From assembly GCA_905178155.1 (NCBI GenBank), contig CAJINV010000018.1, forward strand, positions 662,609-726,608: a stretch of DNA of 64,000 bases. Direction: 5' to 3'. Of the stretch, positions 2,894 through 62,720 are shown one piece after another. The translations under genes were made by a program, and so were the position numbers. Each line of letters opens with the position of its first letter. Within the stretch, counting starts at the first letter, position 1. The stretch is from Amoebophrya sp. A120. Its lineage: Eukaryota; Protista; Dinoflagellata. The notes beneath the pieces are model-generated. The model worked only from the letters and a program-made list of their open reading frames with translations. It made no database searches and was not told the origin of the DNA.

Positions 2894-5800
2894 CTACGCC
2901 TCCAGCTTCGAGTATGAAGAAGTCAAATGGGAGAGCGTCGCCAAGAACTTGGAAATACAAAGAAAGACCATGAACATGACCAACTGCCTCTGGCGCCTCA
3001 CAGCACGAAATCGATGTGAGTATCTTCATCATTTGTCAAATAGAAATACTGACTGTCGTACTTTATTTGCAGGTGAACAAGGACAAGCATCAGCATGCAC
3101 ATACAGTCAATTGGTCTGAAGAGCATTTCCATGCCGACGGTTCTCCCTCCGACTCTTCCATACCGGAACCAGCGCGGCAGTGTGGATGTGTCAGGTTTGA
3201 AATCGTCAAAGTTGAAATAGTTTGTCATGCATAAAACAGATACCAGTCGGAAGCCCACTTATCAAGCGCCGCATGACAAATTTTCCGAGCACCGGAATCC
3301 AATTTGTCATGCTGTTTGGGCACAGAAGACTGCTTTTGTCATGCTCTTTTAGCAGCTCTCTTTCAAACCCTAAATAGGCTCACAATCTGCCTCACTTGCC
3401 ATCCCGGCAAGACAGGCACTCCATGCCTTGCATTTTATGCATGACAAATCATTTCAACTTTGACGATTTCAATCCTGACGCTTCCATAGGCAGTGTGGCC
3501 GGCGTAGTAGTCGCAAGCCTATCCCGATGAAATGAGATAAATGCGTTGTTTTTCTTTCCACGTATGAAGATTTCTATGACTACGCAGCGAGCTTTTCATG
3601 CACGTGCTCAATAAACGACGTTCCTGAGACCACTCTTTCGTCTTTGCGTTGAATCGACACTAAACTTCTACCCTACAAGTACAAGCTCCGACATCGTACT
3701 CCTACTCATGCATCATGCGCATGATGTTGATCGATGACCACATAAAAAAGAATTGCAATTCCTTATTCCATTTTCATCAGGATAGGGTGTCCGGTGCCTT
3801 GATGTCGAAGGTTGTGAAGCTGTGTATAGCCGCTTCAACTCTGGAACATCAATCTGAATCTTATGATCTTTTTGTTTTGTATTTTTACCGAAGCAAGAAA
3901 AAGAATGTTTCGGTCTTGCATACAGGCCAAACAGGGTGGAAAAGCGTAAGCTACTTCTTCTGCAAGGAGCTTTGTATGCGTATCTAAGACTCGGTAGGAT
4001 TGACCATACTTCTTTCAGACAACTTGATACCCAAGGCAGAGATATCGTACTTGTGCAAGTTTCTTGTCATACTGAGAAGACGAGGACCCGTGAGTCGGGG
4101 TCGTCGGCACCACTTCTACCATCCACGACCACATCCGCTGATGAAATGGACCATTTCATCAGATTCAGACTGTTCCAGCTGAGCACGCCGTACTGTAGGA
4201 CGGGTATCCGCACTTTTGGATGTAGGGGACCTGGTGTTGTACTTCTTTGTTCCTCAGAATCAGACAACTACCTTCGATGTCGTTGTGCGTGTTTTCGAAT
4301 AATCTTCCCAGAAAAATTTGCATTTTTAGATCGACGAACAAGTTAGTAGAGCATCTTCTATCACGCTTCCTTCGTCGAAGATGTTGATCAAGTTGAAACA
4401 TAAAGATATTACACATGCAAAAACACATCAAACCTGCGTCTGTTCCCACAAATCCTCCCACTTTTCATGTCGCCCCTTCGATTATGCTACGAAACTCATC
4501 TTCTTGAAATGAGCAGGCTGCCAAGTCAAGACAATATAATACACAAAAAAATCGAGACAAAGTAAATTATAGCGAGGGCAAGTCCAATGCTGCGCCGATC
4601 TTTGGTCCACCTGCTGAAGCTTGACTTGTCTTGACACAAGCTGCACGTTGAACAGCCATCTTCAGGTGGCAGCACGACAAGGACCAGGAACTGATGGATC
4701 ATCATCATACATTCAAGTGGTATCTTACAAGTAACATCAAAGTGGTCGGTTTTCATCTTATGCTAAGAAAACAGCAGCTACGTCGTGTCTGAGAAGATTA
4801 ACTTGTTTCTTTCTATGTCGTATCAAAACTCCGATGCTGGTGAGGTTGCAGTAGGTCAGAATTCCGCCTGGCTTGAGCTTGGACTTGACCTTGCCGATGA
4901 ACTCGAATTGGTGCGCTATCAATCAGAAAAGCGTTTTCGTTACTAGCGGTGTTCTTTTCGCAGATTGCGGTCAGGTCGTGGCATAACTGATTCCATTTTC
5001 CTATCACGACGCAGCAGGCTGTGAATAAATGCAGGCTGCATCGTGCTGTAGATGGACTCTAGTTTTTGGTAATGGTTCTTTTGCTTTTGCATGCGTTTTT
5101 GCATCACAAATTCTGTTCGACGTTATTCAACCTCAGCGTGCACTTTTCTGTGTGATATGCGTGTGCTGCTCCTCGGCATTCAGCGGGTAGGGGTCATACC
5201 TAAATTGTGAATGTGTATGTGATTGAGTTCTTGTTCGCGACGAGGAGCATTAGTACATGCGCTTTTGAAATCTTCGGCAAAACCAAAAGAGCCTGAATGT
5301 TGCTACCATGGGTGAGGTCACGATACGCCGCAACATCAAGAACAAACAAAACAAATCAGTACAGCACTCCGTCCAGGTAGCCTTCGGGCAATTCCGCCAC
5401 TTTGTCTTGCCACAGAACGTATCAAGCGGAGACGTGGTTGTCGAGGCAGCAAGGTTCTTCTCAGGGAAACAATGCGTATCAAGGAAGAGAATAAGAACGT
5501 ACTTAGAACAAAGCGAGTGGTTTTCATGATCATCCTCGTCTTCCGATTGTTCGCAGCGCCAGCCTTTCGACCGAAAATCGTCTTCATCGTTGCATGCAGA
5601 TTTTCTTTCTTTCTTCTGGTTCTGCCTACCCCTACAAAAAAATCGAGCAAAAGGCATGATTCACGGTGCACATATTGCGACGACGTTGGTTCCGACAATT
5701 AAGCACATTTTATTTCCACTTTTTCCTGAAAGAACCGTCACCGTGCAACCCCCACAACTAGTTCTTTGCAGTGCGTAGTCCGTGCAAAAACGTTATCAAA

Positions 5801-9686: not shown

Positions 9687-12199
9687 TTATCCCGATGTGG
9701 AGGTTCCTGGCCGGAGCCCTTCGCCCCCGTGGTTGTCGATCTCGATCTGCTCATCGTCCTGCAGGATCATGGCGAAATTCCAATACCGCTGCAGCGTCGC
9801 CCTGACTCGAAACCAAACGCTCTGACGTATCATTTGTAAAAACGTCCCCACCCCAGAGTTGTCATGCAGATGTGCAATGACAGGAACAGTTGTAATGGGC
9901 ATCTCCATGAGAGGAATTTCTAGTCGTGTTTTGGCATTTGTAATGCTGCAACCAGGATAATCAGATGGATTTCTGATGCGTTTGCCCTTGCTAACCTGCA
10001 CTACACTACGGACTGCAACTTGTGATGCATGAGTCCCAAAAATTCCAGGTTTGTGTTGCAAAATCCCCATCTTGTTGACTATGGGGTGGGGACGATTCTA
10101 CTCAGGATATGACGTCCTGCGGTGCTGCTGGTCTCGCAACGCAGCAAGAACGCCTGCAACACAGTATGAAAGCCTCAGGTTGGAAATCCTCAAAGTGAAA
10201 ATAATTTGTAATGCAAAAAAACGACGCCAGTTGGAGCACCATTTATAGTCGGCGCATGACAAAAATTTCCCGGGCACTCAAAACGTGTTTGTCATGCTAG
10301 TTAGGCAAAGTGGTGCCCTTCTCTCATGCTAATCAGCAGCCCAATTCTGAACCCGTAGAAGCATCGTAGTCGGCCTCCAGTGCGTTCTCTGCAATACAGT
10401 CTTTTTGGTGTCGCATTTCATGCATCACAAATTATTGATAATCTGATTCGAACCGAAGCCAATTATTTCCACTTTGAGGATTTCCATTCTGAGGGTGTCA
10501 TACACAGCCTGCTCCTCGTCCTCGTTTTCGGTGTCGCTCGCGGCTCCGTACTCGTAGTGAGTCTCAGTCGGCGGGCCATTTGATGTTCCAGCAGTGGTCC
10601 TCAGGCCGTAGCGACGCAGCTGATCACCTTCTGCATGAAAATGGCCGGCGGCGGCGCCTCCGTGGGGTAGATGATGTTGCGACGCCGGATAACGCTCAAC
10701 AACATCTCCATGCAGATGATCATGCTGGGGATATCCTGTGCAAAAGTATCGCACTCGTACGCGTTTTTATGCATTATAAATGTCTTTACTAAAGCAAATC
10801 CGCATTACTACAAATTGAATTTGTAATGCTAAATGATTTTGTAATGCAATTTACACTAGTACGATACTTTTGCAGTTCATAGAGGAGCATCTTCACCAAC
10901 TCGACCGTACCGGCTGAACAGCAGCGCGCCTTCGTGTAGCGCGACGTTGCGGTCGTGAAGATGCTGAGCATCATAATATCCTCAGTAAAAACGTCCCCCT
11001 GTCAGAGCCAAGATGGGGATTTTGCAACACAAACCTTAGAAGTTTTGGTGGTCACGCATGACAAATTTCAACTCGTACGGTAGTGCAGGTTAGTGTGGAC
11101 AGCGACAGCCGCATTACAAACCCCTTTTATCTTCCTGTTTACAGCATTACAAATTTTAGAACATGATTGGAAATCATGCCTATGATGGATATGCGCATCA
11201 CAAATGTTCCTGTCATTGGAAATCAGCATGACAACTCCGGGGTCGTGGGGACGTCTTTACACAGGGTACATGAGGGGGACCTTCGTCGTCCGATATTTGC
11301 ACCAACGTTTGCTGTTCAGTTTCATCGGGCCCGCTTTGGCTTTGCTCCGGCAGCTCCAGCTGGAGGTGGTGCTGCAGCAATGAATCCCGCTTGTGCTCCT
11401 GGCGAAGATCTGTCTTTCCTTTTCGCGGCATCAGCGATGTCGACCCCGGCTCGTCCTCGGCAACATTGTTTATCATTCTGATCGGCAATAAATCATAAAG
11501 CGATTGACCTTGTTCGCTCTCCTGTCCCGTTCCGCATTCTTGTTGCGCTTCGGGATCAACCACGCGGAGTGGGTGCTGGAGAGCATGATTTTCGTCGCCG
11601 GTGTTTCTGGCGCCCCCGTCGAACAGCAGCCGTATTCTTGTCGGGTGAAAAAGTTTCGCGGCAAAGGAAAATCTGCGCGCTAGCACGGAGGTCCAGGCCG
11701 CCGGGGTCGCTTGCAGGTTCTGCAGTAATATGCAGAAAGATCCTGCTTCTTGTGTGGAAAAAGAAGGGTCTTCAGGATGATCTTCGGCCCGTCCTTGTCC
11801 TTCGCAAGTAGTTATGCCCAGCACAGCGTGTCCGTCTCCAGCTGTTGCGGCAGCGCAATCGCCAGGATTTGTCGCACCTTCGTCGTGTACTGTCAGCCCA
11901 GCCTCAGCATCATACTCATACTTGCTCCGTTCCAGTTGCAGTTGCACTCGCGCGCCCTGCATATCATACCCTTTTCCAGTTGTTTCGCCCCCTTCTTCCT
12001 CGGAACTAGACGTGGAAACGGAGTCCGCGCGGCGTCTTGCCCGGGGAAAATAATCGGTCCGGCCCTCGCCCTCCGCAGACGACGAATTTCTGCTGCCACA
12101 GGTAAAGAACTTGCTGCGGCAAGAATTATTTGAGCCAGCTCGGCGTCTTCTGTTCGGGCTGGCCCAACAGAAACACCGGAGAAAGATGAGGAAGGCCAA
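9687..12199 (-). CDS. Hypothetical protein, multi-exon, 5' end unresolved
   Basis: ORFs 11213-12199, 10425-10754 and 9687-10070 fuse into one stop-free frame (...EGPPHDAQH...EDAPQHDH...EEQAVLQAFLLRCE...GRQSVWFRVRATLQRYWNF...*) when four elements +5 nt are removed. Confidence 0.72.
9828..10109. mobile_element. TIR introner family C
   Basis: TIR tatcatttgtaaaaacgtccccacccc / ggggtggggacgattctactcaggata; TSD tgacg/tgacg. Confidence 0.9.
10165..10502. mobile_element. TIR introner family A
   Basis: TIR tatgaaagcctcaggttggaaatcctcaaagtg / cactttgaggatttccattctgagggtgtcata; TSD cacag/cacag. Confidence 0.92.
10732..10881. mobile_element. TIR introner family B
   Basis: TIR tatcctgtgcaaaagtatcgcact / agtacgatacttttgcagttcata; TSD gggga/gagga. 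Confidence 0.9.
10977..11268. mobile_element. TIR introner family C (opposite orientation to 9828-10109)
   Basis: TIR tatcctcagtaaaaacgtcccc / ggggacgtctttacacagggta; TSD cataa/catga; internal sequence is a reverse-complement homologue of the 9828 copy. Confidence 0.9.
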
Positions 12200-48630: not shown

Positions 48631-51600
48631 TAAATAGAAAGGCTTACTGAAGAAACATCAAAAAAAAATCAGTCGTAGTCGTAGTGAGTGGCCAGGAGTT
48701 GATGTCGTGTTCTTTCGTGTGTTTCAGCAATGCAAAATAAATGGCAGTGTGTGTGTGTCGTGTGTAAAAGGATTACATCTCATGGACGTCCTCGTAGGAG
48801 TCAAGACCTCCAAGAGGGTGTGTATGAATATACACGAACACAATTTCTCAAAAAGTACAAAAAAATTATTGCGCGATTTGACTCTGGTACTAAAAAGCGC
48901 TCGTGTCCGTGCTCGCCACACGACGCTCCTCGAGATGAGGTGCTGTGCCTTTTCATCATGACAAGGGGATCTACTCGCTCCTCCGACGCGGGGGCTATCA
49001 TGATCCTTGCACGAATGATCCCTGAAAAAAAACTCGGAGGTCCTCGAGAAGTGAAGATGATCTGGATCTACAAAAAGAGGCATCAAGTCGGTCATCGTAA
49101 TGCGTAGCACCAGTGTCGTGGTCAAACCTCCGATGTCTCATTCTCATTCACCTCATGGTCATTGCATACACATAGTTTGCACTTGTTGGAGATGCGCTGT
49201 TTGTTTTTAATATGCATTCATATATGCATTCATTTGTTCATCAGCGACACACCTGGGCTGCAACTCGTCAATGATTCTGAACAAGTAACTCTCGGTACAC
49301 GACGACCGGTGAAAAATTTGATCATGCCGTGCTGCGGCGACAAATGCTAGTGCTTGCATACAACTAGCGGTCAGGCAGATGGAACGGAAATGCTGCTCTA
49401 CTTCTTTTTCTTGTTTACGATCACAAAATCGCAAAAATAAGTGTACATTTGATGAAAGTGATTTGGCTTATTAGGTTCTTGTTCGTTTTGTAAATAAATT
49501 TGTTTCTCCTCGCATAATCAGTTGTTGTAAATACCGGAGGTCGTGGCCAGCATTGCGGGCTTTAGTTGACACGCACACGATCCTATGTAAAAAAGCGTTC
49601 CCATGAGTTCTTGCCAGAATTGTCCTCAGGCATATTTGCATGCTCATGCTTTGTCTCATGCGAAGCAGCCTCTTCAGTTCTAGGAGCATTTTTTTTCTTA
49701 TGCCGTGGGACTTTGTCAACATCATGCTGTATTAAGTGGCATAGGCATACAATGGAGCTGCTAGGTTTCGGTTTGTGATGTGCCACTACCACTAGCCTTC
49801 AACCAGCACGACAATACAACTATCTAGAGCAGACCCAAACATGTAAGTTATGCCCGACAACTAGTAAACCTTGTTGACCACTCGCGCACTATGCAAAATT
49901 TACTTGGCTCTGGAGAGTTCGTTGGGGACCTCGTTTTTACACAAGATATGACGTGTTGGTCCTGTATTATGTCATCGTCGACGACAGAGAGGCCACGTTT
50001 CATCTTCAGCATCGCAAGCAAAAAGTGTCTCAGTCTCAACTTGTTGTAAAAAAGCGCAACTTTCTACAGACCGTTTTTTGTCATGCTCGAGGTCAAGATA
50101 GATGCAACTGCACGAAAGTCGGCTGCTATATGCGATCTGCCTTCTCGTGTCCGAGGACGCATCACAAGTTTTCCGTGGCATGTTGAGCAAATCATTTGTA
50201 TTGCTGGTTCTGATACAAAGGTCTGTTGAGACTGAGACTGTTTATTTTTCTGGTGATATTATTCATCTTCCGGGTAGAGTAAATATACGAGGATTCGGAG
50301 CCTTTATCTATGCCAAACGAAAACTCCTGGCTGAGTTTTAGTGAAAGTATGTACATCAGAGATATGACGCGCTCAGATGTTACAATCTCAAGCGTTGCAA
50401 CAGAGTGGGGAGTCATTTGTCTTGCTCTTGCATAGCGGTTCAGCACTAGAAATACATACGCAGAGCGTTGCGCTTTTTGCAAAACAAATTTCGGCGAGTT
50501 CTAATGCAGTTGGGGACTCCAGCAGAACTTCAGCTAGTACTTGTCATGATACTATATAGCCATGCGTATATCTGTTCTAGCATGAGCGTGAGCTTTTTGC
50601 TTCTGCATAGGGACGACCATGGTGCCTACTCATTGTAACGCTTGAGACTGTAACACCTGAGCAGCTGTATAAAAAATGAATCATGTTGCTAACAATGACG
50701 AATCAAAATAAATCATGGACTACAGCAGCATGGTGGCCAAGGAAGGTGCTGACACACACCACCGTGCTGATGGTCTTGGTTTCATCTCTCCATAATGCGG
50801 ACATCAATTCTACTTGTTGTAATATCTTCGGGTATACTTGTTCTAATATCTGTATCTGCTTCCACTATCAGTCTTTCCCATGGCTGCATTGCAACCGATA
50901 CAGCTATCCCGGAAAAGAAAACTCGCCAACCATGGCCATTTTCTATGACAAAGAACTCGTCAGGCTTGATTGATTCCGATGGATTCGAGCCACCAAACCA
51001 TGGCATAGTAAAGTGCCAACGTTTGCAACCGCAATGTGTATGTGACAACGAAAAGGCAAAGGAAGGCACCTACTGCTGGTGCAATGTGAAATAAAAAAGC
51101 GCATGTAGCTAACTACTTAGGTGCCGGACGGGGAGGTGATAGCGTTAGGGCCATTGGCGTTCTCTTGCCCCGGGCTGGCCGCCCAGGGCCGAAAAAGTGA
51201 GCAACTAAGTCACGCACCAGCCCCGAGCGCATAGTCATAGTGCATAGGATGCGGCCCGGAGGCTCTCCGCTGTGTTTATTTTGCTTTCAACACGGATACC
51301 AGGGCCACCACTAAGAAACGGCCGCAGGCTAATGCGTCGGAACGGCACCCGAGGTCTGTGCTGTTTGGCCTGTCGTGTTCCGCTTTCTCATCTCCGGGGC
51401 CTTTGCGCCCTGCTCGTGCCTGCTGGATATATCTCGCCAGACAACGGCAAAACGACACAAAAAGAAATTTTCGCTTTGACAATCACAATTTTCCTAAATT
51501 TGCTTGGAAAGACTCGCGCGGCCGCGGGTATGGGCCCGGCCCGGGCAACGCGGGAGGCACCGAAATTATTTGGGACTATGACTATACCATGCGGGCAGTT

Positions 51601-52319
51601 GGCCTCTTCATCATTTGGCTGGCGCTTTTTTGTCTTGTGCGTCCTACAACTGTTCCGCGTCCTCGCCTGCGCGAACTACCTTCCGCCCAGGCTTCGGCAG
51701 CCGCCGAAAACGCGGCCATCTTTTTTGTCACGGGAAAATCGCAGTCGCGCCAGCGCACTACCTCGCTGCTTTTATCTCGTGCGTGGCTTTTTTGGGCACA
51801 CTTTTGGGCGCCCGAAAATCGCCAGAACCTAAGGAGCAGGCGGCGGGCGGCCGCTCAGAAGGTGCGCCGGTTTTGCCTCTTTGTGGCCACCCCTTCGCCT
51901 CAGAAGGTGGACACCAGGTCAACTAAAACAAGGCGAAAAGGACCAGCCGCCAATTGCTAGAATGCGAAACGAATCGCCGCAATCGCTGTCGCATCCACTC
52001 CAACTCACATCATTAAAAATAGTTGAGCGGTAGACTGGACGTAAGTAGCGCGCACTTTTTAGTTGTAGAGGCGACATCATTTTCAAAAGGGCAGACACAC
52101 TGACAGCACTTTTTTGAATTTGTTCGTCTAAAAATGCCTTCGCTCGCTACGGCTACTGGGAAGTACTTTTACTTTCTTAGTTACTGTTGCTTCTACACGA
52201 AGTAGAGTTCCCGCACGATAGATAGTAGGTGAAGCAGTTTTCTCCTCCGGGATAGGCAGATGATGGCTTTTGTTTCCGGGAGATGACACCAGCATCGATA
52301 TAATTGTGGATAGATCTTG

Positions 52320-52994: not shown

Positions 52995-55202
52995 CGTCGT
53001 GGATTTATGCAGATGCAAAATGAATTGTCGGTGTCAGGGTTTGGGTTTGCCGGGCTTGTCGAGAAAGAGAAGCCATGGATGCCGTGTCGGAAAAAAGAAC
53101 ACGTAAATCAAGGGTCTAATTCTACTAACTTGTTCCTCTTGTGGCGTCGAGGTCGACATGGTCAAGAAGGATCGATTTTTATGCTTTTTCATATCAGATG
53201 AAAACAGATCCAGAACTCTGTAGCAATTTTCTAGTGTCCGTGCTTCGCAACGGACACAGAGTCACGGTTATTTGCATTTGTTTGTAGACGCCAGAATTCT
53301 GCAGATGCAGAAGGACGGCTTGCATATGCATGTTGCACCAGCAGCTTCAAAAATATCACGATGCAAACCACGCATGCATCTTCCAGGTAGCACATATTTT
53401 TCCTATGTATTAGTAGCACCCTGATACTAGTAGTACAAGTAAGATGGTCACACGACCACAATCGGGTGCTGTGCGCATGACAAAGACAAACGGCTAAACA
53501 GCAATGACTGAGAATAGGATCCATGGTTTTCTTTTCCCGGCGACTCTGACACGAGACAAAATCATCTTTCTTCAGACTGGATAGGCTTTGTCCCGTCACG
53601 AAATGAAATCAAAAAAATGGCATAGTACGGTATAACCTGCTCAGGTGTTACAATCTGCTCAAACGGTAGCAACAGAGTAATGCTAATGCTGTGCCGCAAA
53701 AATAAGTGCATCTGCATCATCTAGCACAGGATTGCGCATGACAAGTTCCGAAGCTGCCCGTTCAGATGAATCTGGCGAATGGAGAGAAAGTCCGTTTAAA
53801 TGAAAAAAAGGATTGCGCATATACAATACAGCCCGTGCTTGCGGATAAAGCTGGCGAAATTTGTACCTATTTTTCATGCGAAAAGCGCAAGGCATCCTTC
53901 CATGTAGTTGTTCCGCATGCTCTCTATGCAAGACAAATTATACAGACTCTGTTTTATTATTGTAATGCTTGAGATGGTAACACTTGTGCGGGTCATATAC
54001 GAGTTGTGTTGAGATGTGCTGCTCGAGTTGTTGAGTAAAAGAAAAGTGTGATTTTTTGCTTCAGGAATATGCGATATCCAAGGAAAAAACTGCGATAGTG
54101 CACCTGCTTTGGTGAGAACGAGAAGAGCATCTATTTGACCTACTGCCAGTCTCTTCTTTTTCTTCACATGCGAATGTGACTTCTGTGACACTTTACAACA
54201 CATTCATGCATCAAGGTAGGTTTAATGTCAATACCACGACGGACAAATTGAAATTGGCATGTACGTTGGCCGCTGTATTAATACGAATACAAATTTGCTT
54301 GCACCACTGCCGTGTGTTTGAATATGCAAGAAGGCTCTCTTGCTCATGTTGTTCTACACCCAGTTACACTTCCACCGTTAGATGATTTCCGTGGATACCA
54401 TGGTGCACAGCTCCCCCTTGACCCTCTCGTTTGTCGTGTTCATTACATTGGCAGGCACGAAGTGTAGATCATCAAATAGACTCAGTAGAACAGAATTGCG
54501 GTGAGAAGTGTAAAATAAATAGCTACACATGAGCCTATTGCTCATAAACTGACGCATAACAAAAGCAAAACAAAGCGGAGGAGTATTCGTCTCTTCCTCT
54601 TGCATACATTTCGATTTTCATACATTAGTTTGCTCTAGTTGCATGACAAAGACAATAAACTGGAGCAGTGAAGAACAAAGGGGGGTGGTGCACTTGGATA
54701 GATAGAAGTTCTTGCATTTGATTTTGATGTGAAGAATGGAAACGGCGTCGAGAACTACCCATCTCGCGCTTGCACTTGCCCCCGCATAGCTCTTGATGCC
54801 GTCGAGCAGGATATTATGGATAAAACAGGAGGCAAGAGCCGCGTGATCTTGTTCGCTAGAAAAACTATAAAAAATCTGTTGAGTTGTGATGCTTGTGAAC
54901 ATATAATCTTGTTTATCAATCTTCTTCTGCTATAATTGCATAGTATTTTGGAATAAGTATAGTGTTGAAATGTGAAAAAGAAAATGGGTTTGGTCTTGAT
55001 AATTTTTGCTTGAATACGATAACGATTTTTTGGCTTGATCAACGATATGCAGTTTCAAAAATTGAAATAAGCACTTCGCGGAAAAAAAAATGTGATGATA
55101 GACCCAGCTGCAGCTCGTGGACCAGTTTTGTGTTGATGGAAATTATCAGTTGGCACCGCCCCCAGTCGCTGCAGTCAGGAGCTGGCGACGATCCTTTTCT
55201 CG

Positions 55203-58200
55203 TCACTCCGCCTGGTTAACCACTCCGCTCTGACTGGAACCCATCGCGCCGCTACCGCCGCCGTCCCCTCGGTTGCTGCGGCTGGCCTTGTCTGGGTTTT
55301 TCGCGATTGGGTCGGTCTTTTTGATCTTCTCCAACCGTCGGTAGACTTCGGTGCTGCCGTATGCAAGAAATGAACTGTGTATAGAAGTTGCGTAACAAAT
55401 CGATCCTGTAGTAAAAAATATATATGCTTCTATATTGAGCAATTCATGCAACAGAGACACACTTGTTGTCCTGCCGTGCTGGCCAGCAGCTCTGGGATCC
55501 TCTTTACATTTTGATTTTGCTTCCACGTTGTACTAGCTGACAGGCTGAAGATTAGATATCATGCGGAACAAGTTCTTTGTGATGCTGCTCTGCTTCTAAG
55601 AAACCTGCGGTAACTACACTGTTTTTCTCGTTGGATATGCTGGGACGGACTTCCTGGTCGAAGCTGAAGCACTGGCCGTGTATACATTGCAAAAGTATCC
55701 TATCGTACTAGTATAAATTGCATTACAAATTTTATCAGAAAGAATTTGTAATGCTAATTCAGGTAAAAAGGTAGGTTTGTCATGCAAGATTGGAATTAGT
55801 ACGAGTACGATAGTTTTGCACAGGATACCGTGTCCTGAGCAACAACGTCCCTACCCCGCCTTGTCATACATATTTGCATGGCGAGGACATCTGTAACGCG
55901 GCTTCGCATGATGAATGGTGCTTTCTAGTGAGTCGCCGTATTTGAAAATCCTTCTGTCTTCATGCGCTAATGCTAAAGCTAACCAGGATAGAAATAAAGT
56001 GGATCATTTATTGTCATAATGCCCTTACTAGACAGGCTAGGCACGAGGACTGTAAAAAAACTTACATCTTCGCCAAACTAACTCCTAAAGCTCTGGAACT
56101 GGAGTTGTCTTGCAGGGTTTTCCTTTCTAGTTTTGCCTCTCTTGCCTGCGGGAGCGGATTATTACTAGTACAAGTACTACCCTTTCGCTATTTACGAGAT
56201 TTGTGTTGCAGAGGTCCCATCATCTTGAATGATGACGCGGGAGTAGGGACGTTTTTCCTCAGGGTAGGCCGTATGGATGTGTCAGGATTGAAATCGACAA
56301 AGTTGAAATAACTTGCAATGCATAAAATGAATGAAAGCTGAGACCCAGTTTTCAAGTGGCGCATGACAAATTTAGGTAGAGCCGGAATCCAGTTTGTCAT
56401 GCTGTTTGCGTAAGAAAGACGCCTTTTGTCATGCTACTTTAGCATCTCAGTTTCTACCCGTCGAGAGGCTTACAATCTGCCTCACTTGCCTACTCTGCAA
56501 GACAGGCACTTTCTGCGTTGCATTTTATGCATGACAAACTATTTCAACTTTGAGCATTTCAAACCTGACGCTTCCATAAGCCGATCAGCGTCTTTACTGC
56601 CTGGATTTCGATGTGATCCGGTGTGGACGGTGGTCGTTTCTGCACGGTCATTATCAAGTGCAAACGTGTCTGGGTCGTCTGGAAGATTCCGAGATTTGTC
56701 ACGCGGTTTTTCCAAGGTCCACCAAGTCTGGAATGCAGGCCCTAGCATCACCGGTAGTTCTGCAGCCCTTTGGTGATGCCTATTCTGCATGACCACAGGA
56801 GATGCCCTCTCAGCATGGCCAGAAGTGGGGACCTTTTGCAAGTCATGCAACACAGATTTTTCTAGCATCTGCAACACGCATCACAAGTTCGCATCCTTCC
56901 AGACACAGACCACACATTCGCAGCATTTGATAGTCATTATGTTCGTTAGCGTCGGCATATCCTTGACACCGTCATAGGGGATCGTGCCGCCAAATATCTC
57001 CGAGTATCGTGAGAAAAAAGTGTCACAGTTACTACTTACATATTGTGAACCGGTTTCAACATCAACATGACGGAAATGCTTGCTGCAAGCCACCTCGCTT
57101 CCTGCGTCTTTTTTTCGCTTCATGACAACGATCTCTAACTCTACGTTGCAGTTTTTTTCTTTGGTCCTGCTGAAGTTGCACCATGCGTACTAACTGTCAC
57201 ACTTTTTTTCTTGAATACACAGAAGATACCTGATGGTCAATAAATTGATCGTGTTCCGACATTGCATTCACCATCGTGCACGACAAAATGAAAAACAAAG
57301 CCCTTAAAAATCCACAATGTCTGCTATCCTTTTTTCACCATGACTACGTGTGCGTGTCGTTCAAGAAAACTTCTACCCGTTTCAAAGTCATCTACTCCTG
57401 GCACTTCTAGTTTTCTTTTACACTATCTAGCCAAAGACGATGATGAAATTACAAATATTATGTACATGACATCGCCCAGACGTCGATTTTTTCTGTGATC
57501 TTGAGCTTCTTATCGAAGAGTTCCGGAGCCATATATCGGGGTGATCCGCCGTTATGCCTTGCCCGCGCGTTGTTTTTGTCGATGTACCTTTGATGGTGTT
57601 CTATGCATCGCAAACAGGTGCAATTGGGTCAGGGTCTGGAAATTAATAATTTGTGTGGCTGATATCAAATTAGAAGCACTGCAATCTTCAAGGACGCAGA
57701 GCAGCTACCGCTCGCACAGAAAACTAGCAGGAGCAGAAGTCTTTCATCAATCTGCATCACAGCTCTTTGGGCTGATGGCCTTCAGATTGTGCATGACAAA
57801 CGACCCAGAGCCAGTAGACAAATTACAATGCATATGTTCAACATGGTGGGGGCAATGTCAAAAATCATGCTCCAGGTCGTGGAGGTTCCAGCCTCTATGA
57901 GAGTGCACAACGGAGCGAGCCGCTTCCCCTCCCCGTCATGTGTATGGCATGCAGAGCTACAGCTAGAAAACAACCCTAACGAACAGCACTGAGGTAGCTG
58001 TGCGCTTTGCAGTCCAGACACGGAGCGCAGTGCGCTCTGCAGTGGCTTCTGTAGGTCGTCCATAGTCTCAGGAAAGAAAGTCATAGTCACAAGGCGAAGG
58101 CAACGGCACAAGCGAAAAAAAAATATCTCTGGCGCATAGCATGCGGATTGGCTCTCCACGTCCTCTGCCGTGCTTTTTCTTTTTTGCGTTTTTCTTTTTA

Positions 58201-61200
58201 CTTTTCGCGTCTGCACTTTTTGCAAAACTTCCTCGGCTCAGAAACCGGCGAAAAAGTGGCCGCTATTACGGTCGCCCAAAATGCTCCGAAACCTCGGCCG
58301 CGCCGTGCGATTTGGCTGTTTCAATTTCGGGCGCGTTTTTTTGGGCGCCTATTTGGGCGACTCAAATCGTCACCAGAATCCCACACGGCGGACGCCTTAG
58401 AAGGGCGCCGCCCTTGCTGGCGCCCCAGCGTCGTTTTATGAAGCGGGGACCGATAGCCATAGCGTCCCCCCCGCCGCGATTTGTCGCCAAAAAAGCCGAA
58501 CAGGCTTGGGCTTGCGCGCTGGGATTTTCTTCATCCTGAGAGACGCTCTTACTTACTTTAGGCTTGCAAACTGCCGGCCATTTTTGGCCATTGATGTCAA
58601 GAAAACTCCCCGGCTATCGAACCGTTCGGTGACCTCGCTGCCTGCTATGATTGATGCATCTTCTCATGCAAAAATCTGTGATCAGGATGCATGCGCATCA
58701 ACACAAAAAGTACTAGCACTAATTTTTGCTGTTACAACACATCTTCAGAGCTGCGTGCTGCAGATTCCTCGCACGCCCCGTTCATCATCTTCTGGAGAAT
58801 ATCACTTTATAGGACGAAATTGAAGCTAAAGGATAGTACTCTGTCAAGCCGAAGTCGCACAGCTTTATGTTGAACTTCAGGTCGAGGACGACATTCAGGC
58901 TCTTCAGGTATCAACTGCAAATATGTAGTCTGGCTCAGGGACAGGGTCTGGACGAACTAGAAATGAGTATAAGCTGTAACTGTATTAAAATGTCGTCCTG
59001 TGAAATAAATTGATGCTCGCACGACTGCAAAAATACGAATACATACAGGGCCAAGCATGACAAGTTACTTTCAGAGCTCCTTGGACATGGTGTATCCTTT
59101 TCCGAATCATGACAAGAAACCAACTGCGTTTCTTGTTTTGCATGCCAAGCTAGAGTAGAGGCTCCTTTCCTGCGTGCCCATGCATCACAGAAGCAGGGGG
59201 CATGACAAAAAATCATGCGTTCTTCCAGCAGACCCAGACATGATATTATTTGCAGTTGATACCAGGTCGCGGTGTACCACAACTGGGTCCCGCGTGTGAA
59301 GATACTCGACGCCCTCGCACAGCTGTAGGAGAAAATACGTCCTTGGTCTTTTTCTCTAGTACTACATTGGAGCAGAAGCAGGTCCTGGCATAGGTGACTT
59401 CCGTCCTACTCGTTACATTACTAAACTCAATTTTCATCTGCAGCTGCACCTGCAGAGCGTACTACTACACTCATGCAGATTCTTGTCATGCGCGACGGAG
59501 TGCAATCTTTAAAAAATGTCGAAGAACTACAGCCGCATGGACATGGTGCAGGAGGGAACACCTTATATCTATTCCGTACTACTCATCTGTACCTGCATGC
59601 TCATGTTCATCGAGTGTCTGGTCGGCAGCTTGACCTTCCGCACGTGGAGGAAATTGTAGAGCGAGCCTGAAAGTAAAGAACATGCATTGCAACACCAAGT
59701 GTCTTTTTGTCATGCTAGAAAGCCAAGAGTGGCGGTGTTGTATGACAACCAACGTGACGAGGAGCATCAAATTCCTCTATCATGCGCATGACAAACCAAA
59801 AAGGAAAAACGTTTTTTTTTCTTTGAAAATGAAATCTCCTGAGATCATCAACAGAAAAATTTCATATTGAACTACTGTAGTACCGTTCGGCATGTATTCT
59901 GTGATAAAGCAGAGATGCGGGTGCTCGAAGCAGGCTCCCAGAAATCGCACAAGCCTCTTGTGGTTCAGGTGTCGAAAGGATTCGATCTCCTTTTTGAGTT
60001 CGTTTATCGCGTGGGAGTCGTGCTGCGCTTTCTGCGGGTCACGGTATCGGATTGCAAAACTCCCACCTGCCCTTATTTCTTGGGGTGCATGAAGAACTAC
60101 AGCAACGCAAGTAGTGTCACAATAAATCCGGCTTTCACATGACGAATCCATACACAATAAACTTCTGTATTTTAGTGCAGTTTTTCTTTGAGCTTCGTGA
60201 TGAACTTCGACTGCTAATCATGCAAGACATGCAAAGGACGAGTGGAGGACGGGACTTGGTATACAAGAACTGCAGCACAAACAATACATGAGGGAGACGG
60301 GGAGTTGTGTACTCTCCTACCCGGTACAGTGCTTTTATCGCTACCTCCTGTCCTTTCCACTTGCCCTTAAAAACCTTGATAATTTTATTGATATAGGTAA
60401 AGCTGCATTTCATAGCAACATGAACATACAACGCGTGCGACCAAAACCATTACAAAATTTTCAGGTTGACAACATATTGAAATTCCTTTTCGCATGAAAA
60501 ACCTCGACAGATGAAAGGCGTTTTTTCGAAGAAAAACTCGCAGTCTTCGTACTAGCAGTAAGTATGAAAGTACACAACTCCCCCTCCCCCTCTCTGAGCA
60601 GATGAAACACAAGCGAAAATGGCGGATGAGAATGAAATGCAGCTTTTGCGTGACAAACTCGCAGCCGGCCACTCAAGTGCTGTTTTGGCCGCTTCATGCG
60701 CAAACTGTCATGCAAGCAGTGGTAAGAGAAAATGAAAGAGGGTATTTTGCATGATAAAGAAAGGGGTCGGGGTGGAGGTGTTGTTCACTCTCATAAATAC
60801 GGCATTCTCTTACCTGTCCAAATTCCCCGTTCCCGAGTGTCTGATCTACATTGAGGTCTGCCCATTCGATTTCGGGAATGTCGCCGGCTACGCTTCTTCG
60901 CCCATTTGGTATTGCGCCCTTGATCCCACCGCCACCTTGGTTGTGCATTTGATTGTTATTGTTTCCTGCGTTGCTCATGCCACCTGGTGCCCCGTTTGCT
61001 GGCCCATTTTGCCACAGTCTTGGCGTCGCGATCTCGGGGTAGGGCACGGACAACTGTCGCGCCACCATGTTTGGCCCCGCCGCTGCAGGTCCGGCGCCCG
61101 CCGTCCCTACAGGGTTATTTATCTGCTGCACTGCAGGGTTATTTGCGTTACTGTAGTAGTCGTGTGGCTTGCTGCCGTGGTACTGTGGGTTTTGTCCATC

Positions 61201-61499
61201 TTGCTGCTGTATCCTGTGCAAAAGTATCGTACTCATACTAATTGCGGATATGCATGACAAATCCAACTTCCTACCTGAAATAGCATGACAAATTGCATTT
61301 CTGTTCTTGGAAAAATTTGTAATGCAATTCATACTACTACGATGCTTTTGCAGTGCATATGCTGGGGGAGCATGTTGTAGCTAGGATTTTTGTTAAAGGG
61401 TACTGATCCTGGCGGTGCGACGGCTGCGCCCGCAGCTCCACCGCCGTTGAGATGCACTCCTGATTGTCTTGCCATGTTGCTGTAATTGTGGTGGTCCAT
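55203..61499 (-). CDS. TKL-family (MLK/Raf-like) protein kinase with N/Q/G-rich N-terminus, multi-exon
   Basis: Reconstructed exons: EIEWADL...LGNGEFGQ/VFKGKWKGQEVAIK...EIESFRHLNHKRLVRFLGAC...ITEYMPNG/SLYNFLH...EGVEYLH...VVHRDL/KSLNVVLD...IKLCDFGLTE...GSPRYMAPELF...KIDVWAM...EIFGGTIPY...LIG/QCFSFDQEVRPS...*. The activation-loop exon is tentative. Confidence 0.9.
55360..55637. mobile_element. Degenerate TIR introner (kinase intron)
   Basis: TAT...ATA ends; TSD tgccg/tgctg; joins RPS-STEVYRRL. Confidence 0.72.
55681..55827. mobile_element. TIR introner family B, inserted into the terminus of the adjacent family C copy
   Basis: tatacattgcaaaagtatc / gatagttttgcacaggata; TSD ccgtg/ccgtg. Confidence 0.9.
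55831..56266. mobile_element. TIR introner family C-like (middle of the triple stack)
   Basis: tgtcctgagcaacaacgtccctaccccgc / gcgggagtagggacgtttttcctcagggta; TSD ggccg at 55674-55678 and 56267-56271. Confidence 0.82.
56272..56578. mobile_element. TIR introner family A (inserted at the TSD of the family C copy)
   Basis: ~50-bp TIR, highly similar to 3181-3488; TSD ggccg/agccg. Confidence 0.92.
56652..56932. mobile_element. TIR introner family D-like (kinase intron)
   Basis: tatcaagtgc...gtctggaag / cttccagac...gcatttgata; TSD gtcat/gtcat. Confidence 0.85.
57005..57217. mobile_element. TIR introner (kinase intron)
   Basis: tatcgtgagaaaaaagtgtcacagtta / taactgtcacactttttttcttgaata; flanks ccgag/cacag. 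Confidence 0.83.
57553..58138. mobile_element. Tentative degenerate or compound introner before GSPRY
   Basis: Left end tatgcc abuts the GSPRY exon; the right end ...gcgcata is a best guess (flanks gccgt/gcatg). Confidence 0.4.
58909..59261. mobile_element. TIR introner family D splitting the kinase catalytic loop HRDL|K
   Basis: tatcaactgcaaata / tatttgcagttgata; TSD tcagg/ccagg. Confidence 0.9.
60045..60319. mobile_element. Degenerate TIR introner (kinase intron)
   Basis: tatcggattgcaaaactccc / gggagttgtgtactctccta; TSD cacgg/cccgg; joins ALYR-DPQK. Confidence 0.72.
61210..61359. mobile_element. TIR introner family B (kinase first intron)
   Basis: tatcctgtgcaaaagtatcgta / tacgatgcttttgcagtgcata; TSD tgctg/tgctg; joins MLPQ-QQDG in frame. 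Confidence 0.92.
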
Positions 61500-62415
61500 T
61501 CTGGTACTTGAGCTCTGTGCTGGCGAATAGCCAACCCGCGTGGACAGGGCACTCATGCGGGCTGACGGACGAAGAAAATCACGTGGGTCCTCGTGGTTCT
61601 CGACGCGGCTACAGCTTCCTGGTGTTTGAAAAAGGACTTGTTCGCAGGACGAGAAAAAGTTTCTGTGGCGTGATGAAGTCTCGTCATGTGCTGGAGAAAG
61701 TGAAAGATGACGGCATCAAGGAAAACATAAGAAAGCGATAAATAAAGTAGAAGCATGTAGATTTTCAACCATCATGTCTGATATTCCCGTTGGCCATGAC
61801 ATCTCTACAACAAAATTGTGTTCAAGATAACATGCAAGCAAGCATGTCGGCTCTACTTCGTTCCGAGTCGTGTACTTGTGTACTAGTACTACTTCATTCT
61901 TTCCCGCCGTGTTTTTGTTTCTGCAGGTGTTTCTGCAGGTATTGAAATGATTTTCCTTGTTCATGCTTCTTGCTTTCTACGTTGACACTTTTTTTCAAAC
62001 GATACAGTTCTTGGTTTTGGACTTGATTTTTTCTTCCACGAAGGATAATTCCGGTTCCACCGCTGCGTCCAGGAGTACGCTGAACTGAAACGCCAAGCTT
62101 GGGATTCTTCACCAGGAAAGCGGACCAAGAAGAGCAACTACGCTTTCTTTTACAGGAGGCTATGGAGGTGGCGCTGCTCGCTTTTCTACTAGTTCGTCCG
62201 TTTAATACTCCCGTAGTGCAACTTCTTGATGATGAGCAGCAGCTCCGGGTTGAAGTTGATTTCCACCAGGCCGCGCAGATGAGCCAGGCTTCCGTGGCCT
62301 CGTCCGCCTGTCGATCGCGGTATTCTGCTGCGCAAGAAGCTTGAGCACGAAAATTCCACCAGATGTTGTGCTCTTCTGTCGTCCGCTCGTGAACGACGAC
62401 CAGCAACGGAAGGTC

Positions 62416-62720
62416 TATGGAAGTGCCAGAATGGAAATCCTCGACGTGGAAATAATTTGTGATGCATGACATGCGACGCAAAAAAGACTGCATTGCAGAG
62501 GACGCAATGGAGGCCGACTATTGTCCTTCCACGGGTTAAGAATTGGAGTGCTGATTAGCACGAGAGAAGGGCGTCCCTTTGCGTTAACCAGCATGACAGA
62601 CATGCTTTGAGTGCCCGGGAGATTTGTCATGCGCCGCCCAGAAGTGGCGCTTCAACTGGAGTGCTTTTCTGCATTACAAACCATTTCCACTTTGAGGACT
62701 TCCAACCTGAGGCTTTCATA
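62416..62720. mobile_element. TIR introner family A (inverted relative to 10165-10502)
   Basis: tatggaagtgccagaatggaaatcctcgacgtggaaat / atttccactttgaggacttccaacctgaggctttcata; TSD aggtc/aggtc; host gene frame not resolved. Confidence 0.92.

Follow-up and report, generated by a model that had tools for sequence, protein, structure and literature searches.

The minus strand of the window (the whole 64-kb stretch of DNA analysed here) carries an expressed kinase gene of the marine parasite Amoebophrya sp. A120. RNA joints and the Amoebophrya sp. A120 protein P0002 (484 aa; PF07714, PF00069) place this gene at 55217-61556, with approximate ends, and divide it into 13 exons, which encode an intact 484-aa protein kinase (PF07714/PF00069) once spliced. 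One 51-residue exon is a 100% match to P0002, and once a micro-exon is restored, the spliced model derived from the RNA joints includes the whole of P0002 without a single difference. Flanked by a GT-AG intron on one side and the terminal-repeat element 57005-57217 on the other, this 11-nt micro-exon (57219-57229, minus strand) brings the kinase back into frame, and P0002 includes it. A GT-AG intron of the kinase at 57584-58835 (1,252 nt) has a GC-rich middle that resembles an old insertion.

A single codon of this gene is split by a stack of three introners with a total insert of 905 nt. The exon upstream of the stack (56580-56646, minus strand; RNA-like contig piece, joints and P0002) ends in the Gly codon of LIG, and the downstream exon (QCFSFDQEVRPS; 55638-55674, minus strand) is supported by RNA-like contigs and P0002. 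Along the forward coordinates, element B (55681-55827, 147 nt) is followed by a 3-nt spacer, element C (55831-56266, 436 nt), a 5-nt spacer and element A (56272-56578, 307 nt), positions and spacers that agree with the original prediction; in minus-strand order the locus thus reads exon, A (56578-56272), 5 nt, C (56266-55831), 3 nt, B (55827-55681), exon. Related kinase proteins align across the stack site with no indel, and in the public gene model the insert is annotated as a single intron.

All three elements have terminal inverted repeats that are predicted to pair (matches per 20 bases: A 17/20, C 16/20, B 15/20), those of A being ~58 nt long, and both ends of C deviate from the usual TAT...ATA. 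Elsewhere in the window, A-family copies occur at 3181, 10165, 52320 and 62416, and B-family copies at 10732, 43472, 61210 and 62839. We also drew on at least 152 partly overlapping related loci from a related assembly, selected by an exact B end and with full flanks for 80, in which the same families are found at ~77-94% identity; among the loci listed, near full-length matches number 19 for A and 206 for B, counts that reflect selection for the B end. No full-length copy of C was found in the 64-kb window or among the matches listed in these loci, and its relatives in the window are end-related elements only (9828-10109 and 10977-11268). These two elements have C-like ends in opposite orientation and lie ~870 nt apart, with A-family and B-family elements between them. 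In the DNA-like set X1, C has single-copy depth (30.3) and the ends of A and B have thousands-fold depth; C is therefore probably the oldest of the three elements.

Direct repeats lie over the exon borders of each element, matching at 5/5 positions for B, 4/5 for A and, with B taken out, 5/5 for C. The perfect duplication of B consists of the last 2 bases of C and 3 bases of C's right duplication, and from this we infer that B inserted later than C. It had been proposed that B lies in the terminal bases of C, which holds insofar as C's last 2 bases belong to B's duplication; the terminal repeat of C is nevertheless unbroken, and B has instead shifted the 4 nt that follow this repeat and contain the 3' cut of C. 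The 5-nt target of A and C is present as a triple copy common to both, with 1 mismatch in the outermost copy, at an intronic position. The shared copies agree with the proposal that A inserted into C's target duplication, but the geometry equally allows insertion of C into A's duplication, and on geometry alone the order of these two insertions is free.

Joints in RNA-like contigs

Two RNA-like sets of assembled contigs, X3 and X4, cover the kinase gene; they come from one study, carry one sample label, differ from the DNA sample and are classed as RNA by content rather than by record. X3 skips GT-AG introns (e.g., 59322>59593 and 60372>60812) as well as element introns along the whole kinase gene, and we therefore treat it as spliced RNA. 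Both sets contain the mature joint 55674>56580, which skips 905 nt (contig depth 148.6 in X3 and 95.6 in X4) and is the junction that had been predicted from the sequence; C is thus also removed. In addition, one 496-nt contig per run spans all of C and has the joints 55675>55828 and 56267>56580, so that B (152 nt) and A (312 nt) are absent and 0 other letters differ (depth 14.3 in X3 and 7.16 in X4). Both runs thus hold, at contig level, an intermediate of the kind that the original prediction had proposed to look for, without A and B. It makes up ~9% (X3) and ~7% (X4) of the summed depth, rough figures given that assembled contigs drop rare variants, that their depth is a poor measure, and that no read or single molecule links both joints.

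The depth over C equals that of the 496-nt contig alone, and accordingly neither the A-C nor the C-B junction occurs unspliced in any listed X3 or X4 contig. In every C-containing RNA listed, both neighbours are gone, which argues that A and B are each spliced out efficiently as introns in their own right. Joints expected from removal of C first (55826>56268 and 55826>56580) are absent among the X3 and X4 contigs, in which rare variants are dropped, as are cross-pair joints (those with 2 extra nt, or with C cut into B); those observed connect the two ends of an individual element. None of the placements open to the A and B joints gives GT-AG ends. In the DNA-like set X1, a single contig (55800-56297, depth 30.3) runs through the B-C-A junctions and the splice joints are absent, and X7, with low-depth DNA behaviour, likewise has no joints.

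Could the C-retaining contig come from an allele or strain with C only, in which A and B never inserted or were excised from the DNA? The RNA-like and DNA-like runs are different samples, and no X3 or X4 contig has A or B at this site, both of which fit such an allele. We nonetheless regard it as very unlikely. The listed X3 pieces agree with the window at every letter (the exon pieces of a 2,555-nt record, and retained introns of 421, 417 and 440 nt), X1 has the three-element form only, and the outer duplication of A is already mutated, which takes time; excision would moreover require two precise DNA events, each leaving one duplication copy.

Direct repeats at the base of a hairpin are a known setting for reverse-transcriptase jumps, and the sequence deleted at both the A-less and the B-less joint has short direct repeats on its two sides, at the foot of a stable hairpin. 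We consider jumps of this kind an extremely improbable source of the joints, since C is kept despite having the strongest end duplex, A and B are both gone with no unskipped form among the contigs, the full deletion restores a conserved kinase, and the mismatched duplications all resolve to one register.

Translation of the C-retaining RNA would meet a stop two codons into C. X3 keeps other introns as well (53626-53997 at depth 35.1 vs 260.6, and 55355-55637 at depth 7.9). Retention is therefore no peculiarity of C, and the C-retaining RNA may be, at least in part, a dead-end retention product. Three terminal pairs of C are predicted to be open by folding. The deviant ends of C were considered as a reason for its retention and not upheld, as other introns with normal ends are kept at similar levels in X3.

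Some further signals from the same data concern other transcripts or copies. At 54702-54731, downstream of the kinase stop, an X3 contig boundary coincides with a rise in depth from 156.5 to 285, a step that might reflect a second transcript beginning there on the same strand. The X3 joint 55733>55794 belongs to a 127-nt record that fits only in short pieces and is probably another B copy. The raw-read RNA runs X9-X11 leave the kinase gene uncovered and match only repeat pieces that are 90-95% alike. For the piece of an A-family element at 62427-62530, X9 has 586 reads 90-95% alike, 226 of which end at 62530 and carry a short unaligned tail, presumably library adapter; an abundant RNA may begin inside an element related to this one.

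Cut register and order of removal

The direct repeats allow each joint to be placed in several ways, and we tabulated the permitted placements for 10 element introns with RNA joints; GT-AG introns and the intron 54064-54701 were excluded from the count. The only register common to all of them (10/10) cuts 1 base before and 4 bases after the terminal repeats (1+4), and the element at 57005-57217 also fits, for 11 in total. The register is fixed exactly at the joint 50900>52256, and A and the element at 58904 rule out 0+5. We infer that the cuts flanking every element fall 1 base ahead of its terminal repeats and 4 bases beyond them. They may be the work of a loosened U2 spliceosome or of another machine. 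All of the RNA-supported element introns (12/12) begin N-T-A in this register.

Two of the introns used or set aside here have features of their own. The intron 50901-52255 (1,355 nt) combines clear terminal repeats and an exact 1+4 cut with almost no matching duplication and a GC-rich interior, and the only part of its region found in a 421-nt X3 contig is 50871-51291. The intron 54064-54701 has an unambiguous RNA joint, with its best terminal repeat ending 11 nt before the 3' cut and a second ATA 4 nt before it; the 3' cut may follow a local motif rather than the hairpin, or a remnant element may be hidden inside.

Applied to the stack, 1+4 gives an intron A of 312 nt (56268-56579, minus strand), made of element A with 1 and 4 flanking bases and matching the joint 56267>56580, and an intron B of 152 nt (55677-55828, minus strand) that contains element B and matches the joint 55675>55828, which slides over 6 places. 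The 3' cut of A and the 5' cut of C then fall on one bond (56267..56268, minus strand), which would form a zero-length exon; the joint here slides over 4 places, and the exact bond depends on the register. By register arithmetic, the main part of intron C, kept in the 496-nt contigs of X3 and X4, would occupy 55829-56267 (minus strand), and its final two bases (55675-55676) would be joined to it only once B is gone, for a complete intron of 441 nt (905-312-152=441). Cut as in the primary transcript, intron C would instead overlap intron B by 2 nt (55827-55828, minus strand). The intron ends would read GT..CG for B, CT..GC for C and TT..GC for A.

Several claims of the original prediction can be checked against this arithmetic. 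Joining the 5' cut of A directly to the 3' cut of B, the proposed one-step removal from the outermost ends, does leave 2 extra nt under 1+4, A and C do abut with no exon between them, and removing B first does rebuild the end of C. The proposal that the stack is a compound intron is likewise supported. In folding predictions, the stack forms three separate hairpins, with own-end duplexes of -41.6, -49.4 and -23.9 kcal/mol, the strongest being that of C. A duplex of A-left with B-right reaches -8.7 kcal/mol, and one of B-left with C-right -22.5 kcal/mol in an isolated-end test.

The same numbers bear on the alternative that the insert leaves mostly in one step, from the 5' cut of A to a site 6 nt past B, or in two, A and then C together with B, with the C-retaining RNA as a side product. 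The 3' site needed for this already stands in the primary transcript and has the same last six bases as the rebuilt end of C, so a one-step cut would be possible if only a local motif were read. The public gene model has a single intron here, the intron 54064-54701 suggests that a 3' cut may lie at another distance than 4 nt from the best terminal repeat, and an order of precursor and product goes beyond what contigs show. Against this, the outer joint that was seen would need 7 flanking bases as one intron, whereas every single element uses 5, as in the 11 other element introns; the pairing of A-left with B-right is weak at -8.7 kcal/mol; and all listed C-containing RNA is already without A and B. 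We judge removal in one or two steps to be unlikely.

We think it quite probable instead that the 905-nt insert is removed as three separate introns, with C likely leaving last. In this scheme, removal of A would rebuild the 5' cut of C at the same bond, the zero-length exon, removal of B would rebuild the 3' cut of C out of two bases to the left and two to the right of B's junction, and C would then be excised last as a 441-nt intron. A route in which A and B leave before C exists at contig level. A fuller version, a compound intron of non-GT-AG transposon introns in which a fixed 1+4 offset makes both outer removals necessary to rebuild the cuts of C, is one that we hold tentatively, with confidence somewhat below even.

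The order of removal is less constrained than had been proposed. We simulated all six removal orders under 1+4, and each gives the correct mRNA: A can go first or last, with removal of either A or C rebuilding the cut of the other, and the primary transcript offers C a 3' cut position that could be used, 1 nt into B. The order had been described as obligatory, which is an overstatement, given that 6/6 orders are correct on paper and that B does not split the repeat of C. Cutting C first takes the first base of B and leaves a B remnant that begins G-C-A, which could still be removable if the altered first base is tolerated.

A stronger form of the preferred three-intron reading, compatible with it, holds that C can leave only after B, since C-first removal destroys the first base of B and traps the transcript. 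The G-C-A start of the remnant departs from the N-T-A seen in 12/12 RNA-supported element introns, and no C-first joint occurs among the X3 and X4 contigs, although absence from contigs is a weak argument. On the other side, every order yields the right product and the place of A is free. Spliceosomes are known to tolerate GC donors, which counts against a trapped G-C-A remnant. Among strand-called elements in the related loci listed, non-TA ends lie at the 3' side in 5/7 cases and at the 5' side in 2/7 (one clear, one doubtful), a split that decides for neither side. We regard a strict order as plausible without favouring it. Under the three-intron reading, B before C is probably the main route, which the arithmetic does not force.

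Rarity of stacks and relation to known systems

We asked how often elements of these families lie this close together in the related loci listed, which merge into 136 sequences (366 kb) in which 407 elements were detected. On the window itself the detector picked up A, B and C but missed several known elements. Neighbouring pairs less than 13 nt apart number 0/279 and those less than 30 nt apart 2/279 among the matches listed, where spacings of 30-89 nt hold 10-22 pairs per 10-nt bin. The gaps of 3 and 5 nt in the stack thus compare with none below 13 nt among the 279 pairs in the loci listed. At a loose threshold, 4 of 753 ends were within 9 nt of a candidate neighbour, and on inspection none had a partner repeat. 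Five nested calls, some of them spurious, were made among the 407 elements, and elements in the loci listed avoid each other, which suggests a minimum exon length or exclusion of insertion.

There is no sign of general targeting of element ends or of a hot spot among the 279 pairs and 753 ends in these loci, and no strong target consensus among 302 perfect 5-nt duplications. According to the sections considered of PMC7789003, Amoebophrya A120 has ~30,000 introner elements per genome; with that number, and with an example picked by eye, a rare triple needs no targeting mechanism by itself. Chance together with survival of a splice-compatible arrangement would, we believe, be a sufficient account of the stack.

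By the features tested, the stack is a set of Amoebophrya introners. As described in the parts of PMC7789003 considered, A120 introners have TAT-start inverted repeats, an A-run, direct repeats of 5 nt across the exon borders, ends other than GT-AG and membership in repeated families, the last of which holds here for A and B. Introns without GT-AG make up more than 60% of the Amoebophrya total, and the cutting mechanism is left open there (PMC7789003, same parts). That account concerns single elements, whereas here three are stacked with an intermediate; the sections considered report no stacked elements or intermediates, and the words "nested", "twintron" and "recursive" occur 0 times in the portion of the text considered, as do "nested" and "adjacent" in that of the supplement text. 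"Nested" likewise occurs 0 times in the parts considered of PMC12130899 and PMC11282704. Micromonas has several instances in which introner elements are nested or merged, described from DNA in a passage without splicing intermediates or order (PMC3879977, the passage considered).

Two classes of canonical introns resemble parts of the stack. In fungal, alternatively spliced stwintrons of the [D1,2]/[A2,3] type, an inner intron lies within a splice-site stretch of an outer one, an intermediate without the inner intron occurs, and terminally overlapping introns can lead by either of two paths to the same mRNA (PMC5639578, PMC7138796, in the parts considered). B similarly interrupts the splice-site stretch of C, between the third-last and second-last bases of intron C if the 1+4 register holds, an intermediate without the inner intron is present in X3 and X4 at contig level (55675>55828 with C kept), and the overlap of B and C could permit two routes to one mRNA. 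Stwintrons as described in those parts are, however, canonical U2 introns (GU donor, branch point, AG acceptor) in two parts, whereas the present stack has three transposon-derived parts and no GT-AG. Recursive splicing, in the parts considered of PMC5126111, shares with A and C the placement of a 3' and a 5' cut at one bond to which the upstream exon is joined (56267>56580, with the bond set by 1+4), but uses an AG/GT consensus within very long introns, whereas the bond here reads GC/CT. Unlike the sites in those parts of PMC5126111, the zero-length point here arises from the shared target duplication of two short elements.

The B/C pair thus acts like an acceptor-disrupted stwintron and the A/C pair like a zero-length recursive site, and as the test for canonical splice sites failed for both, we file the stack under neither class. 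A literature search over titles and the openings of abstracts gave, among the papers listed, no report of stacked non-GT-AG Amoebophrya introners with intermediates. Introners, stwintrons and zero-length exons as such were already known.

Value of the locus

Within a single transcript the site brings together three 5' and three 3' ends, and each model of removal predicts different joints. The locus can separate a mechanism that works element by element at a fixed offset from the free pairing of local motifs, and it can also reveal whether the terminal repeat must keep its first base. One transposon can land on the splice site of another and yet leave the gene intact, and gene models with one 905-nt intron hide compound introns of this kind. 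If the 1+4 compound-intron reading is true, recursive and twin-intron splicing would come together in one intron, outside the canonical splice code, and the kinase gene would offer a natural reporter for the recognition of Amoebophrya's unexplained introns.
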